Positions 56,401 to 64,000 of a DNA stretch of 64,000 nucleotides are shown one piece after another. Source of the DNA: Yuukianura sp. NJ FZ-2021 (Eukaryota); contig CM102287.1 of the NCBI GenBank assembly GCA_046563655.1, forward strand, positions 5,394,001 to 5,458,000, written 5' to 3'. The stretch's first letter is position 1. The number at the start of each line of letters is the position of its first letter. The notes under the pieces are model-generated. The model did no database searches. It worked only from the letters and a program-made list of their open reading frames with translations, and was not told the origin of the DNA. The position numbers and the translations under genes were made by a program.

Positions 56401-59400
56401 ATGGATTTCACTTGGAAATTGCACAAAATTCCGAAAGGAACGTCACCGCGTCCTTCCAGAAGATCCATTTCACAAAATTTTCTGAAATTTCGAAAACCTT
56501 GTTCGACTAACCTAACCTCCGCAATTTATTGTGTCCTGGTCAGCAGTTTGTTTCTCGTGACAAACTTTGGTTCAGTTCTGAGTGATAGTAGTAACTCCTT
56601 TGAGAGTTGTAAAAAGACTTCCGTCGTTGGGGGTGGATCGGACTTAAACTTGTCCTGTCACCTCCGTACGATCAATGGCTTTGACAAAACCAACTTCAGT
56701 ACAGGGATGGCCGTTGACAACGTCGTGTCACTCGAAGTCTTCTGCTCCGATGTCCATTTCTATCAAAGTTCACTTCAGCCCGGGAGCCTCGCTTCGCTTC
56801 CCCGTCTGGGCAACTTACATATCGAACATTGCAAGTTAAGTCGACTTCCGCCTGGATTGCTGTCAGGTCTGAGCTTTCTAAGAAACTTGACCTTGAGGAC
56901 GCACAACACAGCTTGGCCCGTGCTAAGTTTAGACATTGGTCCAGGACTGCTCAAAGGTCAAACGCAGTTGGAGAGAATCGATCTCTCAGCGAACAATATC
57001 TGGACATTTCCGGACAAATTGTTCTGTCCAGCAGCGTCACTGGAGACGCTAAACGTGAGCTTAAACCGACTTCAGGACATTAGTGACTTGAGCTTCCGGG
57101 ACAAAGAAGGGCTCACAACTGGAGCCAATTCTTGCAAAATGGGCATCCAAGTTCTAGATGTGTCCAGAAATAGGCTCATTCTGCTCCCAGCCAAAGGGCT
57201 CTCCACTTTGACTCAACTAAAGGAATTGTATCTTGAGGGAAACGAAATTTCTGTAGTAGCTGAGCGTGCTCTGAGTGGCCTCAAAGGGCTCAGGATTCTG
57301 TCCTTGGCTAACAACAAAGTCCAGAGTCTCCCTCCAGAACTATTTGTTGACACCCCGGAGATATCCGAGATTTATTTACAAAACAACTCCCTGGCATCCA
57401 TGGCTCCAGGACTTTTTAGTAAATTGGATCAGTTGGTAGTGCTGGACTTATCCTACAATGCACTCACTTCTGCATGGATGAACGGAGAACAAGCAAGAAG
57501 GGACGGAGAAGAAGAGGAAGGGAACGCAGGCGATGGACAAACGAAGGGCTCCGGGACTTTTGCAGGGCTCATTCGCCTGGTCCTGCTAGGACTTGGACAT
57601 AATCGACTAACCCATCTTGTCCCAGAATCTTTTCGTGACCTCTACTCTCTCCAGATTCTGAATCTACAAAACAACCAGATCGAGTCGATTGATGGCAACA
57701 CTTTTTCGGCAATGAATAACCTCCATACCCTCTTGCTCTCTTTCAACCGACTCAGTTTCATTGACTCGACGTCTCTGAATGGACTGTTTGTGCTCAGTGT
57801 GTTGTCTCTGGATAACAACAACATCTCCAAAATCCATCCAGCTGCCTTTCATAACTGCTCTAGCTTGAAAGATTTGAATCTAAATGGAAACGGACTCCAG
57901 GAAATACCAACAGCAGTCCAGAACTTGACGCTACTGAAAACAATTGACCTTGGAGAAAATGGAATTGAAGCGCTGGAGTCTCCGCCGAAACTCATCGGAC
58001 TCCCAAAGTAAGTTTTGTTATTCAAAACAGAATTTTTTGAAATAAGGTTTTCTCTAAAGCTAAAAATTCCCAAGAATTTCTAAAAACCGAACTTTCTCCA
58101 AGAGTAGAAAGTTCGGAAATTGAATGCTTTTCATTTACGGAATTCTGGCATGACTCAAAATGTTTGAGGAAGAAAAATTGTAAATTTCAAAATTTTGATG
58201 TTGTTTTTCGCTTGATCTTAGTTTGTACGGACTGAGACTGACAGGAAATCGGATCGTCAATGTCAGTAAAGACGCTTTGAAGGAACTTCCTTCTTTGAAA
58301 ATCTTAAACGTGGCTAGAAATCAACTTCAGTCTGTGGAGCCTGGTGCCTTTGATTCCAACTTGAACCTCCAAGCTGTTCGTCTCGACTCGAACTACCTCT
58401 CCGACGTGTCAAATCTGTTCGCTCAGTCACCGTCCTTGATCTGGCTCAACATGTCAGACAACCACTTGACCTGGTTTGACTACGCCCTCATCCCACAACA
58501 ACTCCAGTGGATTGACCTCCACAAAAATCAAATCACTGAACTAGGCAACTTCTACGGTCGATCAGATCTGAGACTCCAGACACTCGATGCGTCGTTCAAC
58601 AGAATCACTCGAGTGGGAAGTGAAAACATTCCGGATTCAATTGAAATGGCTTTTCTCAATGACAACCTCATCACACACGTTGAACCACACACTTTCTTCA
58701 AGAAAGCAAATCTATCCAGAGTGGACATTTTTGCAAACCAAATTGAAACGCTGGAGCTCAGCGCTCTCAGACTCGCACCTTTTCCGGAAGACAAACCACT
58801 TCCAGAATTTTACATTGGTAAGTATTTTTCAACAATCATCTACGTTGCTTTTAATGTATCAACTTTTCAAAATTTCAAAAAAATTGTTCTCTTTTTTACA
58901 GGAGGAAACCCTATTACATGTGAGTAATTTTTTTTTATTAGAATAAGTAAGCTTACACGCCTCTCATATAAAGTAAAGATAAAATTTGGTCTCAACTGAG
59001 GTTTGGAATTTAAAGTTTCAGTAAATTTCACGTTGAAAAGTTTTAGTCTGTGTGTGAAATTTTTTCTCAAAATTTGAAAACTTTGAGTTTTACTGGAAAA
59101 TTGATGGAACGGATGTTTTTAGGCGACTGTAACATGGAGTGGTTGCAGAGAATCAATAAGTTGGACCATCTTCGCCAGCATCCTCGCGTGATGGACCTGG
59201 AGAGCGTCTATTGTAAGCTCGTTTACCACCGAGACAAGTACTATGTGCCGCTTGCAGAGGCTGATCCAGCTCAGTTTCTGTGTTCATACGAGACGCATTG
59301 CTTTCACCTCTGCCACTGCTGTGACTTTGACGCCTGTAAGTCCTAACTACACCACTTAATGCTTTCTAACATTTCATACTTTGACCTCCGACCTCCACTT

Positions 59401-61805
59401 TTCCGCTTATTTCATTTTCTGGATTCACCAAAAAACTAACCAATCGGTTGTCTTCTTTTGTCACCTTGGACAACTGAGCGGTCGCTGCGATTCACTAAAC
59501 AAGCCTAGCCTGAGGAAAATCTAACTGAATTAATTTTATATTAATGTATTAATATATTTATTAATTTACTCGTTTTTAGGCGATTGTAGGATGTCATGTC
59601 CAGACAACTGCACTTGCTACCACGACGACACTTGGACAGCCAACATTGCCGACTGTGCCTCAAGAGGTCACACCACAGTCCCCTCACGAATTCCCATGGA
59701 CTCTACGGAAGTGGTAAGTTTTTTTTTCTTCTTTGTCGAGAATTTTTAGTTTGAAATTTTGTAAAAAAAAAATGGCTAAGTCCAATTTCTTGTGAAATGG
59801 TAAAGTACCTCGATGGAAACTTTCTGGAGGAACTTCCGAGTCACGTCTTCATTGCTCGCAAGAATCTTCAAGTTCTGTACCTCAACCACTCTGGAATCTC
59901 GGTCATTGGAAATAATTCATTCAGTGGACTCAAGCGCCTCACCGTACTTCAGCTCGGTAAGAAACAACTTTCTACTTTCACTTTTTCAAACACGGATTTC
60001 ACTTGATGAGCAGCGTTCTAAACAAGACACGTTCTTTTAAAAAAAAAGTTTTCGAAGAATTGCTTTCTTCCGTCTCTCAAATTCCTTTTCTGTTCGTCTG
60101 TTCAATTACTGCAATCACGCGTCCTGGTTTCTAAAAAAAATGTCCGAAGCGGACTGAGGCCAGTAACGTAATGTCCATTTTTTTTTCAAAAATTCGAAAT
60201 TTTGAATTTAGATTTCAAAAGACTCAAAACAGTCCTGTCTCATTTTAGCGCCAATCACTTTCGTTCCTGAATTTCACCCGAATTTGAAAGTCAGAATAAA
60301 GTTTGTTCTTTCAGATTATCCTTTGCTGACTTTCACTTTAAGATGGATCGGTTTCGAGTTGACTGTAGTTGACCTAATGTCATTATTGACGTGAAAAATT
60401 TGCATTATTTTGAATTAGGTGTTGATGTTCTCATGTTATGGTGGTCCTGCGCGTTTTTTGAATGTTTGGACTTATGGGAGATTGATGCGTGATATGTTGC
60501 TCTGCAGGTAACAATTTCCTTACGGAATTGCGTGGTTATGAATTTGAGCCACTGGAAAGCCTGCGTGAACTCTACCTCCAGTCAAACCAAATCCGATTCA
60601 TTGCCAACCACACGTTCCTCACTCTGCGTGGACTCGAAATTTTAGTTCTGGAAGGGAACCAACTCACGCATTTTTCCTTTTGGACACTTTCCCAAAATCC
60701 GTATCTCGTTGAAGTAGCTCTGACTGGAAATCCTTGGTCATGTGACTGTGACTTTGTCTCTTCGGCGGCTCCATGGATCCAGTCCAACTCAGCCAAGCTG
60801 TCGGACTCTTCTGGAGTCTCCTGCACCTTCAATGGAAGGACCCTGTCTCTCCTGGCTATGAATGGAACCAAGTGCTCAGAAATAAGGGCCCTCTCTGGGG
60901 CCGTCGAGGCTCAGGAGACTTCACTTCCGCCGTACTGGCCTCTGATTGGTGGAGTCATGGGCACTTGTCTTCTGCTCGGGATGATCCTGCTCGCTGTCTG
61001 TCGGAAACGGACGTCACTTCGTGTTTGGGCCACGTCAAAGTGTCCACTGAATCAATGTTATCAGACAACGCTTGACTCTGAAGATCGTGAGAAACTGTAT
61101 GATGCATACGTTGCATATAGTGTCAAGGACGAGGCTTGGGTGAGCCAAGTCCTTGCATCAGAATTGACCCAGTGTGACACGCCCCTTCGCCTTCTTCTGC
61201 ACTACAAAGAGTTTGGTGGTACTTCATACATAAGTGACACAATTGTGGAAGCAGTTGAATCTAGTAAAAGAACAGTGATTGTGTTGTCTAAAAATTTTGT
61301 TCAATCGGAATGGTCACGATTTGAATTCAAATCAGCTTTACACGCAGCACTTCGCGGGAAAAAGAATCGACTAATCGCTGTCACCCTTGGAGATCTACCA
61401 ACTCGTGATCTCGATCCTGACCTACGTGTAGCTCTACGTACAGCCACAATTTTATCAGCTAACGACAAACTATTTTGGGCTAAACTAAAATGTGCCCTAC
61501 CAGATCCACGAGTTACGTACACACTAAACAGAAGTAACGCCGGAACGGCCATGCGCAGTCACCAAAATCACGCTTCTGCGCATCCACTCAATGGACTGAA
61601 CTACAGCACTGCGACGCTCGAGAGAGGTCGAAGGTCAGCTACTGGAAGTCTTAGCAACTGCAACAGCATTGCGACTACTCCGAACAGTGGGTCCGTCAAT
61701 GTCCCACTTTTTGTGCCCCCCTTCCCACCCCCAAATCGACCCCCTCCCCCGTTCCCCACCCCCCGAAGACCCCCACCCCCTGCTCCATCAAACATGTGGG
61801 GATGA
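56401..61805 (+). CDS. Toll-6: Long Toll receptor, most like Toll-6 (LRRs, Cys-rich caps, TM, TIR); 7 coding exons: 56401-58007, 58222-58817, 58902-58919, 59123-59335, 59580-59713, 59806-59955, 60508-61805
   Basis: Many LRRs; [55 protein letters not shown]...[13 protein letters not shown] helix [23 protein letters not shown] box [10 protein letters not shown]...[12 protein letters not shown]...LFWAKL. The Toll-6 versus Toll-7/8 call rests on recalled motifs. Confidence 0.88.
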
Positions 61806-61985
61806 CAACTAATGACCCCTCCTGACCTCCCATACCCCCCGGAGGACTTTGACCCCTTGACCTTTGACCCCTACGAAACGTGTTCAACTGTAGTCATGGG
61901 AGGAGGGGATTATCCAAGTCATCATCATCTTCAGTCTTGCTACGACTACAGTCCCATCCACATCCAACAACACTATTACAAGTAA
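61806..61985 (+). CDS. Putative stop-codon readthrough extension of the Toll receptor (59 codons plus TAA)
   Basis: In-frame open reading after TGA-CAA-CTA: QLMTPPDLPYPPEDFDPLTFDPYETCSTVVMGGGDYPSHHHLQSCYDYSPIHIQQHYYK*. Base composition becomes AT-rich only after this second stop. Confidence 0.6.
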   Translation, partial: QLMTPPDLPYPPEDFDPLTFDPYETCSTVVMGGGDYPSHHHLQSCYDYSPIHIQQHYYK

Positions 61986-64000
61986 CTAACAAAACCTTAT
62001 TGGTATTTTTTAAAAATTTCGAGTTTTGAATCAAAAAATATTTTATTTTGTTACTAAAGTTTCATTTTGATTTACACTTAAACTTAACAAATGTCAATTC
62101 TAACTCGAATTCTAACTAGAAAAAAACTCAACTTCGAATTCCGAATCTCACTGTGCACCTCAAGCATTCTCAAAACCTCACGAATTTCACTTTTTGAAAA
62201 ACTTTTTTCGTACTCTCGTGTATCGCAATTTCGGAATCTCAGTTTTAAGTTAAGTTTTAATTAAAACTTAAATATTAAGATCAATCCATAATACGTAAAT
62301 GCACTGGCTAACGATCCCTTTCAACTCTTGACTGATTATTTATATAAAAATAAATTTCAATGAATTAAATTATTATAATTGTGCTCAAAATAATAATGAG
62401 GAAGAACTCATTTCCTCTCCTGTCATAATTTCAGTTTTAATAACACCTTGAGGATTTCAAGAAACGCAGGATTTGTGTGCCTAACTGAACCATACTATTG
62501 TTAATTAACCTTAACCTAACCTTACTGAAGGATATACAGGCATAACCTAACAAAAGCGGGGAAACAGCGTAGCCTAACTTCCTTCTGAGATGAGTTTCCT
62601 GCTCTTATGGCCTCTTTCATGTCTCTCTAATAAGAAAAAAGTAATCATGAGGGGGCATAAAAATCTCGTAACGAAAACATTTTAGAGCAGAAAAAATATA
62701 AAATGAAGAAGAAACAAGGGATTTGGAGATGCGGTTGTGTGGGGGCGATAGGGTTAGGTTATGTTAGGCTAACCTAAAAGGTTATGGTTTGCCCGGGAGA
62801 AAGTACACAAAAAGTTTTTTCGGATTCCTAATAAATTGGAAAAAGTAAAAAAAACGAAACGAGGATTTGTTATTCCTAGTTTCTGTTTTGTTGCTTCTTC
62901 GGTTAGGTTGGCGCACTTTCTCTTTTTAGGAGAAGCTACGACCGGGGGGATGAGGAAAACTGTAACTAATTCCAGGGTCGTATTGCATAAATACCGGGTC
63001 GTAAACTTCGTCCTCCGAAAAAGTTATTGTTCCGTATCGAAATTTTTTCCCGCGTTTTCTCTAAAGACGAACTTTCACCTAAAACGTAACAGGAAACGTT
63101 CATAACCCAAGCATAACCTTATAGTAAAATTTCTCCTATTTCGAGGAAAAAATATTCATTGCGTTTCTGACTTTTATGACATTTGCACAGAGATTAAGTA
63201 CGAAGATTAGATTATTTTTTAAGTGTTCACGTTAGGTTAAGGTTAGGCTAACAATATGTGATTAGTATTCAGGAGAATTTGTGATTATTTTTCCACGAAA
63301 CCATTTTTTGTTTTCTTCCAACATCATTTTTTCGTGAAGATTGTTCAACTTGCATTAACTTGGTTTAGGTTTAGGGTTAAACCTTTTCCTAATGGAAATT
63401 AAGCACTTTTCTAAGTATAATCGAATCTCGTCGGTGCTTCTGGGGAAAGTAGGGGGAGCAGGATTACATTTGCGGTTGTTGCGACAGTAGGAAGTGAAAG
63501 TGCTTCTGGAGATTCAATTTTAGTTTAATATTATCGTATCATGCGTATCTCCGCAACGCATCTCAAATTTCTCCCCTCTCTAGGTTTTATGTTAGGGTTA
63601 AGTTAAGGTTAGTGTAATATGCTCATATTAAACTTTTATGATTAGTGGGACGGAGGGAGTAACTATAATTTCATCCAAGACATTGTTATGTTGTAGTGGT
63701 TACAAGAGGTCCATAATCCAGGATGCACTTAGGAACTCTGCTTTCTCCGAAATCTAAATTATAATTTCAAATTGGAATTGAAGTGGATTTGTTCCTGGAA
63801 TTTGGAGAGGACTAATCTTTCCTATCTTTTCTCATTCCTCCTGTCACCCTCAATTGTTTTGTTTGGATTTCCAAGTTTAAGCTTCAAACGTTAAAGTGGA
63901 AACTAGTTTAGTAGTAACATTAAAGAAAAGAAGAGCCAGAGTGACATGAAAACGGAAAAGGGAATAAGGTTTTGAAGTTCAAGTATCTTTTGAGGTTGTG

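Follow-up and report, generated by a model that had tools for sequence, protein, structure and literature searches.

Toll-6-type receptor gene and its stop codon

The window, i.e., the whole stretch of 64,000 nucleotides analyzed here, harbors a Toll-6-type receptor gene on the forward strand (56554..61802). Its coding region comprises six exons with the approximate bounds 56554-58005, 58223-58885, 59047-59337, 59582-59707, 59806-59956 and 60508-61802, the last of which ends with ...APSNMWG-TGA, and its real start is located slightly upstream of position 56554. In a tblastn comparison, residues 5-1311 of the springtail protein P0005 (1400 aa) match the window in six collinear blocks, and the donor and acceptor sequences flanking the exons were read directly; the five donors are all GTAAGT, GTGAGT or GTAAGA. 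The product of the last exon (P0002) contains a TIR domain at residues 206-310 (61104..61418; Pfam TIR 50.4 bits, cut-off 21.3; TIR_2 51.3 bits) and an LRR_8 match of 58 bits. These LRR and TIR matches, together with the collinearity to full-length P0005, document the architecture of a long Toll receptor, with the same LRR ectodomain and TIR domain as the Drosophila long Tolls (Toll-6, Toll-7, Toll-2/18w, Tollo). The assignment to Toll-6 is one of orthology by similarity, the best named matches outside springtails being designated toll-like receptor 6 by their sources (Lycorma, Schistocerca, Cryptotermes). The coding region also closes with the Toll-6-type C-terminus [LMIV]-W-[AGS], which reads MWG in the window and abuts the stop codon.

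The last 102 nucleotides of the coding region (61701..61802, forward strand) encode a conserved Pro-rich block ending with ...APSNMWG, which corresponds to the ...PLWA and ...PLWG ends of other springtails. All five of the best springtail homologues terminate with ...PLWA, the closest relative (P0131) ends with ...PLWG at the position of the stop, and an exact [LMIV]W[AGS] end is present in 68 of the 120 listed homologues. A comparison of this block with the springtail locus L001 revealed identities at 26, 28 and 7 of 29 first, second and third codon positions, respectively, as is characteristic of a protein under purifying selection. The polymorphisms listed for 61500-61802 are located at third codon positions in 14 of 15 cases, thus indicating that the gene is under selection. 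The TGA at 61803-61805 (forward strand), the candidate readthrough site, is the true, ancestral stop of the springtail Toll-6-type receptor; at the same position L001 has a TGA and the springtail protein P0130 a tryptophan. This tryptophan may stem either from a TGA, if translated with a TGA=W code, or from a genuine TGG.

The layout given in the original prediction, namely, ...SNMWG-TGA followed by CAA CTA at 61806-61811, 59 sense codons and a TAA at 61983, agrees with the sequence in every position. Its concern about a base error at the TGA was met by two spanning contigs (X1 record 4, X2 record 9) without any difference from the window at 61803-61805; the runs behind both contigs stem from one sample, probably the source of the window's own assembly. 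Record 9 of X2 represents a second haplotype with 24 differences from the window in 1601 nt, and the TGA is hence retained in both. Run X5 from a second organism did not cover positions 61479-62165.

Stop context and downstream open frame

The TGA is directly followed by the hexamer CAACTA (61806..61811, forward strand), which fits both CARYYA and CA[A/G]N[U/C/G]A (CARNBA). UGA-C is the leakiest stop context, and the motif UGA-CA[A/G]N[U/C/G]A is described in the accessible part of PMC13278127. The combination of UGA, C at position +4 and a CARYYA hexamer, to which the original prediction had drawn attention, is present in the window as TGA CAA CTA and recurs as the same class in L001 (TGA CAA TTA), with five of six hexamer bases identical and Gln-Leu encoded in both. 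L001 is the only springtail orthologue with readable post-stop DNA; in P0130 the comparison relies on the protein, where QL follows the tryptophan at the stop position. The stop and its context hence agree with L001 and are compatible with P0130, the two possible comparisons. Third codon positions of the window and L001 are identical at only 7 of 29 and 33 of 88 sites, and by this measure synonymous sites between the compared springtails are saturated. As judged from these sequences, the leaky stop context is conserved among springtails. The TMV-type signal (stop plus CARYYA; in yeast CA[A/G]N[U/C/G]A) is fitted by CAA CUA in the window as well as by CAA UUA in L001, but the viral signal follows UAG, whereas the stop is UGA here. 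To our knowledge, the strength of the hexamer has never been measured in a springtail. Folding of the region behind the stop gave no indication of a stimulatory RNA structure (z = -0.27 for 183 nt, -1.57 for 118 nt), which counts against readthrough.

The stretch between the two stops (61806-61982, 177 nt) consists of 59 sense codons including seven for tyrosine and is terminated by an in-frame TAA (61983..61985, forward strand). The other two forward frames contain four and three stops in the same stretch and all three reverse frames are interrupted, which leaves frame 0 as the sole open frame of the six. The second stop is located at a step in GC content and overlaps a donor-like GTAACT (61982-61987), which is weaker than the five real donors of the gene, since these all read GTAAGT, GTGAGT or GTAAGA. 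The GC content of the tail (0.497) resembles that of the coding sequence (0.474; introns 0.336, downstream region 0.345), and 30-nt bins range from 0.43 to 0.63 up to position 61979 and from 0.17 to 0.23 from 61980 onward. A coding-like GC content past the TGA with a subsequent AT-rich drop had been predicted, and the step can now be placed at 61979/61980.

The 3-base periodicity of the tail (chi-square 12.6) is equalled by 24 of 64 coding and 4 of 216 non-coding windows, and that of codons 13-59 (chi-square 15.5) by 2 of 216 non-coding windows. The 177-nt stretch is coding-like in its GC content and periodicity. Dinucleotide shuffling of the stretch itself (5000 replicates) left a frame of 59 codons open in 7.8% of cases, and shuffling of the 300 nt downstream of the stop (likewise 5000 replicates) did so in 4.3%; chance alone may hence have left the frame open (p = 0.04-0.08), which counts against readthrough. 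The same applies to the codon-usage log-likelihood ratio of the tail in frame 0, which amounts to -4.3 compared with +10.5 (sd 8.0) in coding and -10.7 (sd 8.7) in off-frame windows. The codon usage of the tail is ambiguous, and a position-specific composition model did not single out any frame.

Conservation of the extension

Conservation across species is confined to the first 12 codons after the stop (QLMTPPDLPYPP; 61806..61841, forward strand). The window, L001 and P0130 all share four of the 12 residues, namely, Q1, L2, D7 and Y10. The probability of this identity by chance is about 4e-6, and it ranges from 0.001 to 0.004 for the last 10 codons without the QL pair. When 33 nt of this segment are read in frame +1, the window and L001 are likewise identical at 4 of 11 residues, and the conservation of codons 1-12 could therefore reside at the RNA level.

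Codons 13-59 (61842..61982, forward strand) carry six of the seven tyrosines; their product has a high content of Tyr, Pro, His and Asp, and the stretch has a coding-like composition and no known homologue. In L001, codon 12 is followed by a consensus splice donor (CAG/GTATGT) and AT-rich, intron-like sequence with an in-frame TAA after 17 codons. P0130 reads Q/VS at the codon 12 boundary, which is a splice-donor-like site, and is unrelated to the window thereafter. The window itself is devoid of a good donor after codon 12. For the second open reading frame as a whole, the putative coding signature among the three springtails is limited to the four invariant residues of codons 1-12, and codons 13-59 are without orthologous sequence.

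Searches with the extension gave the same picture. Among 1.84 billion representative proteins, the 59 residues had three matches, all of them unrelated repetitive proteins, and no Pfam family was matched. Comparisons of the extension and the downstream regions with L001-L006 by tblastn and tblastx recovered nothing meaningful; these are the six loci among the metagenome matches listed (at least 599 pattern matches), which do not include the contigs of P0005 and P0131. Aligning the three termite-like loci L002-L004 revealed no obvious conserved downstream exon, the extension is not repeated within the window, scans of genome contigs and viral contigs yielded no relative, and cluster look-ups yielded no members of greater length. 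The comparison of orthologous 3' ends suggested in the original prediction thus bears out the stop context and codons 1-12, while codons 13-59 are without a detectable homologue. Only two polymorphisms are listed for the tail, at 61826 and 61828, and both change the encoded residue (D>E, L>P), which argues against readthrough; none is listed for 61830-61982.

Termination, splicing or readthrough

Readthrough is common in insects, where it is known in hundreds of genes. For the TGA at 61803-61805, we regard readthrough with the addition of a 60-residue tail as a plausible candidate explanation, with a probability slightly above even (about 0.55). The context of UGA, C and the hexamer CAA CUA would render the stop leaky, so that a minority of ribosomes would insert a near-cognate residue at the UGA and go on for 59 codons to the TAA at 61983. 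Candidates for this residue are Trp, Arg and Cys. Because the leaky context has been kept in springtails despite saturated neutral sites, readthrough by a minority of ribosomes appears to be the most likely outcome; both the passage over the TGA and its rate are what we infer. The main isoform would end with the conserved ...W[A/G] carboxy-terminus of the family. In the minor isoform this end would be buried under the Tyr/Pro/His/Asp-rich tail, which is probably disordered and might serve to mask the C-terminal end or to provide tyrosine sites for Src-type kinases.

Ordinary termination at the TGA is a possible, albeit doubtful, alternative. In that case the conserved 36 nt would act at the RNA level as part of the first 3'UTR exon, e.g., as a splicing or regulatory signal beside a conserved 3'UTR intron, and the 59-codon open frame a by-product of C-rich composition. 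Consensus donors located 17 nt (termite- and psocodean-like loci) or 36 nt (L001) past the stop are in line with this explanation, as are the termination of conservation at codon 12 and a similarity between the window and L001 that is equal in frames +1 and 0. The chance openness of 4-8%, the ambiguous codon usage and the alteration of the residue by two of two tail polymorphisms point in the same direction. However, C at +4 and the CARYYA hexamer are the reverse of what selection for efficient termination would favor and were nevertheless kept across saturated divergence, and a good donor after codon 12 is missing in the window. Moreover, ordinary termination does not account for the coding-like GC content of codons 13-59 or for their periodicity, which only 2 of 216 non-coding windows equal.

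The remaining explanations dispense with a leaky stop altogether. An alternative splice form is the standard rival to readthrough in the accessible part of PMC5100048, and the 177 nt could belong to a coding exon with an acceptor after the TGA, or to a gene on the opposite strand. The measures that render the stretch coding-like are independent of frame, and a pyrimidine-rich run with a terminal AG is present at 61843-61844, but this candidate acceptor is poor (GAG/G), only frame 0 of the six is open throughout, the conservation starts right at the stop without an internal acceptor, and the peptide was not found as a protein end among the 1.84 billion representatives. We therefore consider this origin of the stretch very unlikely. 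Still less credible is a TGA that is an artefact or no stop at all, whether through an error in sequencing, through a nonsense mutation recently acquired by a dying gene or through a role as selenocysteine codon. Abundant C homopolymers in the C-terminal coding region and the deviation of ...SNMWG from ...PLWA might suggest such a defect, but they are outweighed by the occurrence of the TGA in two haplotype contigs, its ancestral position and the 14 of 15 upstream polymorphisms at third positions. With regard to a selenoprotein, an Rfam scan of 61500-64000 (E up to 1) did not reveal a SECIS element and returned only MIR1862 (E = 0.47), which falls well short of its cut-off. Excision of the TGA as part of a 49-nt intron (donor GTGGGG at 61796, acceptor at 61843-61844) was likewise rejected, as the splice sites are poor and a new stop follows after five codons.

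The readthrough proposed here would be a case of a well-known kind and implies no new principle. The conserved readthrough genes of Drosophila and Anopheles, candidates identified by PhyloCSF and ribosome profiling, are comparable to the gene in the window with respect to UGA, C at +4 and A at +5, an in-frame second open reading frame of tens of codons, a cell-surface receptor of neuronal type and a disordered-looking extension whose codon usage is weaker than that of the main frame (accessible parts of PMC13278127 and PMC5100048). In contrast to these insect genes, the comparison for the window comprises three springtails and 12 codons, and two of these species have an extension that is broken by a splice-donor-like site. 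Cell-surface receptors are enriched in the top tiers of the Drosophila candidates, according to the accessible part of PMC13278127. Two long Tolls of flies are already known among readthrough candidates, namely, Toll-7 (tier 3) and FBgn0004364 (tier 2), whose extensions measure 75 and 72 nt, respectively (2026 Drosophila table, PMC13278127). Their stops are TAA, whereas the window has UGA-C and an extension of 177 nt without sequence relation to anything found. FBgn0004364, which is unnamed in the table, is presumably 18 wheeler/Toll-2. Toll-6 is not contained in the candidate table of PMC13278127, Toll-6, Toll-7, Tollo and 18w are all absent by name from two of the three supplementary files that accompany PMC5100048, and our literature search retrieved no paper joining readthrough with Toll-6. 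The idea that the tyrosines serve as phospho-Tyr docking or sorting sites, put forward in the original prediction, is speculation by analogy and is entertained only because Src42 phosphorylates Toll-2 and Toll-6 of Drosophila (accessible part of PMC9116419).

If the readthrough proposal is correct, programmed readthrough of the insect style reaches the springtails and affects a Toll-6-type receptor, a class that is active in neuronal wiring, tissue morphogenesis and immunity. Springtails represent an early-branching group of hexapods. With the extension in place, the carboxy-terminal W-A/G end, which is kept across pancrustaceans, would be concealed, and the isoform ratio could therefore tune binding by the receptor tail.

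In a broader version, which seems unlikely, readthrough at the Toll-6 stop would be ancient among hexapods, and a 3'UTR intron would normally have to be spliced out to complete the extension. The species of the window would have lost this intron, so that its extension forms a single, fully open frame of 59 codons. The extension would disable the ...W-A carboxy-terminus conserved in the family and supply tyrosines to Src-type signaling. A stop other than TAA with a subsequent C is present in five of the six lineages whose sequence is known past the stop (the window, L001, P0130, the termite-like loci L002-L004 and the psocodean-like locus L005), and the sixth, L006, is ambiguous. Four of these five lineages have a consensus splice donor 17-36 nt past the stop, which is located at 17 nt in the three termite-like loci and the psocodean-like locus and at 36 nt in L001.

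The Toll-6-type gene and its stop codon

On its plus strand, the window contains a full Toll-6-type receptor gene (approximately 56554-61805) with six coding exons, which is collinear with a springtail protein of 1400 residues (P0005) and whose last-exon product matches the Pfam families LRR_8 and TIR. A homologue search at E ≤ 0.001 retrieved 199 proteins, of which the best 120 were taken; the top matches are springtail proteins, including those of Allacma fusca and Orchesella dallaii, followed by proteins of insects and crustaceans that carry the name toll-like receptor 6; the window therefore comes from a springtail. Its coding region (56554-61805) is interrupted by five introns whose donors are strong and of the GTAAGT type. 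The orthologue in the springtail locus L001 is a single unbroken frame of 1393 codons (L001:662-4840), and full-length ORF calls on metagenome contigs suggest the same for other species.

Reading of the sequence bore out that the frame ends in ...APSNMWG followed by TGA (61803-61805), and this stop codon is genuine and correctly positioned. Each of the five top springtail homologues has the end ...PPPPxPLWA, and P0131, the closest relative among the matches listed, ends in ...APLWG and has an 11-residue variant in common with the window. An exact [LMIV]W[AGS] end is found in 68 of the best 120 of the 199 homologues, the others of this set mostly ending in YWA, LWT or the Tollo-type ...HI; in the homologue P0081, a motif of the [LMIV]W[AGS] type lies 116 residues upstream of the C-terminus. 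The [LMIV]-W-[AGS] carboxy-terminus, a free hydrophobic-x-hydrophobic end, may be a ligand for a PDZ-like domain. The final residue in the window (61794-61802) and in P0131 is G instead of A; the YWA end belongs to crustaceans, LWT to some beetles and bugs, and ...HI to Tollo-type proteins.

The stop is crossed by DNA contigs of three sequencing runs of one sample. A base error at the TGA finds no trace in two of them (X1 record 4 and X2 record 9), for which all differences were listed and none falls on 61803-61805. X2 record 9 represents a second haplotype with 24 differences from the window in 1601 nt, and several haplotypes appear to be present in the sample. Among the differences listed, 14 of the 15 polymorphic sites in 61500-61802 are at third codon positions, and purifying selection has therefore acted on this tail-coding region up to the stop. 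The listed polymorphic sites number 15 in these approximately 300 nt versus two in the following 177 nt.

Sequence behind the stop codon in springtails

A metagenome scan yielded at least six loci with related Toll-6 genes from 599 pattern matches. The springtail locus L001, which encodes P0003 and shows 74% identity over the matched part, reads ...PLWA TGA CAA TTA, ten further codons and CAG/GTATGT before the sequence becomes AT-rich (L001:4841-4885). If unspliced, it has an in-frame TAA after 17 codons; the contig reaches 182 nt past the stop. A protein of 258 residues from a third springtail (P0130) runs ...PLWA-W-QLQLIPDYHYFQ-VS..., with W at the stop position and 149 more residues beyond it, a T/C-rich translation without resemblance to anything. 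The W stands either for a TGA that the gene caller translated as Trp or for a TGG codon in this species. P0130 is probably a gene call made with a TGA=Trp code on a eukaryotic contig; calls of this kind can yield sequence from behind a stop by accident.

The stop is identical in the window and L001, and the following hexamer agrees in five of six bases, CTA and TTA both encoding Leu and both fitting CARYYA, the TMV-type readthrough hexamer; over 36 nt behind the stop, 17 are identical. The background to these agreements is saturation at neutral sites: third positions match in 7 of 29 codons of the terminal block and in 33 of the 88 codons for identical residues of the TIR region. The window, L001 and P0130 share four of the 12 residues behind the stop (Q1, L2, D7 and Y10), with a chance probability of ~4e-6 and, without the QL pair, of 0.004 (random composition) or 0.0012 (permutation). 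Codons 12-13 are Q/V in L001 and P0130, which fits CAG/GT; the window has CCG GAG and no good donor. The orthologue comparison upheld the original prediction in part: the TGA-C context and the opening 12 codons are kept in the springtails compared, and codons 13-59 have no counterpart there. At the sequence level, conservation is shown only for this stop context and these 12 codons. The other 47 codons look coding and may be either lineage-specific or located beyond an intron in other species.

Candidate readthrough versus ordinary termination

The TGA is best read as a candidate leaky stop, with a probability of about 0.55: the sequence comparison suggests that the ancestral UGA of springtail Toll-6 is kept in the context UGA-CAA-YUA and that a minority of ribosomes would read through it, adding 60 residues in the window species. 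As originally described, CAA CTA and a frame open for 59 codons (61806-61982) with seven Tyr lead to TAA (61983-61985), and GC content drops behind the stretch, from 0.43-0.63 in 30-nt bins to 61979 to 0.17-0.23 from 61980. The other two plus frames contain four and three stops, and every minus frame is interrupted. The main, less probable alternative is ordinary termination, with the conserved element as an RNA-level part of the first 3'UTR exon and a frame that is open by chance. Shuffled sequence stayed open over 59 codons in 7.8% of 5000 trials with the stretch and in 4.3% of 5000 trials with the 300 nt that follow the stop; by itself such openness is weak evidence.

The stretch is partly coding-like. 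In favor of coding are its GC content of 0.497 (coding sequence 0.474, introns 0.336, 2 kb downstream 0.345) and a chi-square of 12.6 in a frame-independent test of 3-base periodicity, a value that 24 of 64 coding windows reach but just 4 of 216 non-coding ones of equal length; codons 13-59 alone give 15.5, reached in 2 of 216 non-coding windows. Against coding are the frame-0 codon-usage log-likelihood of -4.3 (coding windows +10.5, sd 8.0; off-frame -10.7, sd 8.7) and the two polymorphisms listed in the extension, both of which change residues, namely, 61826 C>A (D to E) and 61828 T>C (L to P). No polymorphism or indel lies in 61830-61982 among the differences listed (13 more exist); this speaks neither for nor against coding, as the remaining 3'UTR, too, varies less than the synonymous sites. 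The extension has no related protein among 1.84 billion representatives (three matches, all unrelated repeat proteins), no Pfam family match and no second copy within the window. A convincing RNA structure after the stop was not found (folding z = -0.27 and -1.57). Selenocysteine at the TGA was rejected, no SECIS element being found in an Rfam scan of 61500-64000.

In Toll-6 orthologues, donor sites shortly past the stop point to an ancient 3'UTR intron immediately downstream of it. Three termite-like loci, 84% identical to Cryptotermes TLR6 (L002:4682-4705, L003:1000-1023, L004:4679-4702), and a psocodean-like locus (L005:4634-4657) read ...PLWA TAG CGG YTG ... CGC AG/GTAAGA or AG/GTACGT, with the consensus donor 17 nt past the stop, versus 36 nt for CAG/GTATGT in the springtail L001. 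A non-TAA stop followed by C is present in five of the six lineages with information, four of these five with a donor close behind. Downstream of the stops of L001-L006, neither a counterpart of the extension nor a conserved coding exon was found. The thrips-like L006 (2600-2700) is ambiguous, ending in ...QRWS TAG AG/GTATGT; its Thrips palmi relative continues for ~45 residues to ...PLWA, and L006 has either an intron ahead of the true end or is a truncated copy.

Readthrough candidates among other Toll receptors

FBgn0004364 is presumably 18 wheeler/Toll-2. In the Drosophila candidate table of a 2026 preprint (PMC13278127), which appears complete, it stands without a name in tier 2 with a TAA stop, an extension of 72 nt and an ORF of 4158 nt; Toll-7 is placed in tier 3 with a TAA stop, an extension of 75 nt and a single model. 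The estimated precisions of these tiers are 0.609 and 0.428, respectively, and Toll-6 is absent from the table. The preprint agrees with the initial claim that UGA-C is the leakiest stop context, assigns A at +5 to the motif UGA-CA[A/G]N[U/C/G]A and reports cell-surface receptors as enriched among top-tier readthrough genes. PMC5100048 names alternative 3' splice sites and starts further downstream as the standard rivals to readthrough, and two of its three supplement files contain no Toll names. Our literature search found no paper joining readthrough and Toll-6; the springtail candidate is new, and readthrough as a kind is already well known. The phospho-tyrosine role first proposed for the extension might be envisaged by analogy with fly precedent and nothing more: according to a review (PMC9116419, citing Tamada et al. 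2021), Src42 promotes the phosphorylation of both Toll-2 and Toll-6, and Toll-2 in its phosphorylated form recruits PI3K.
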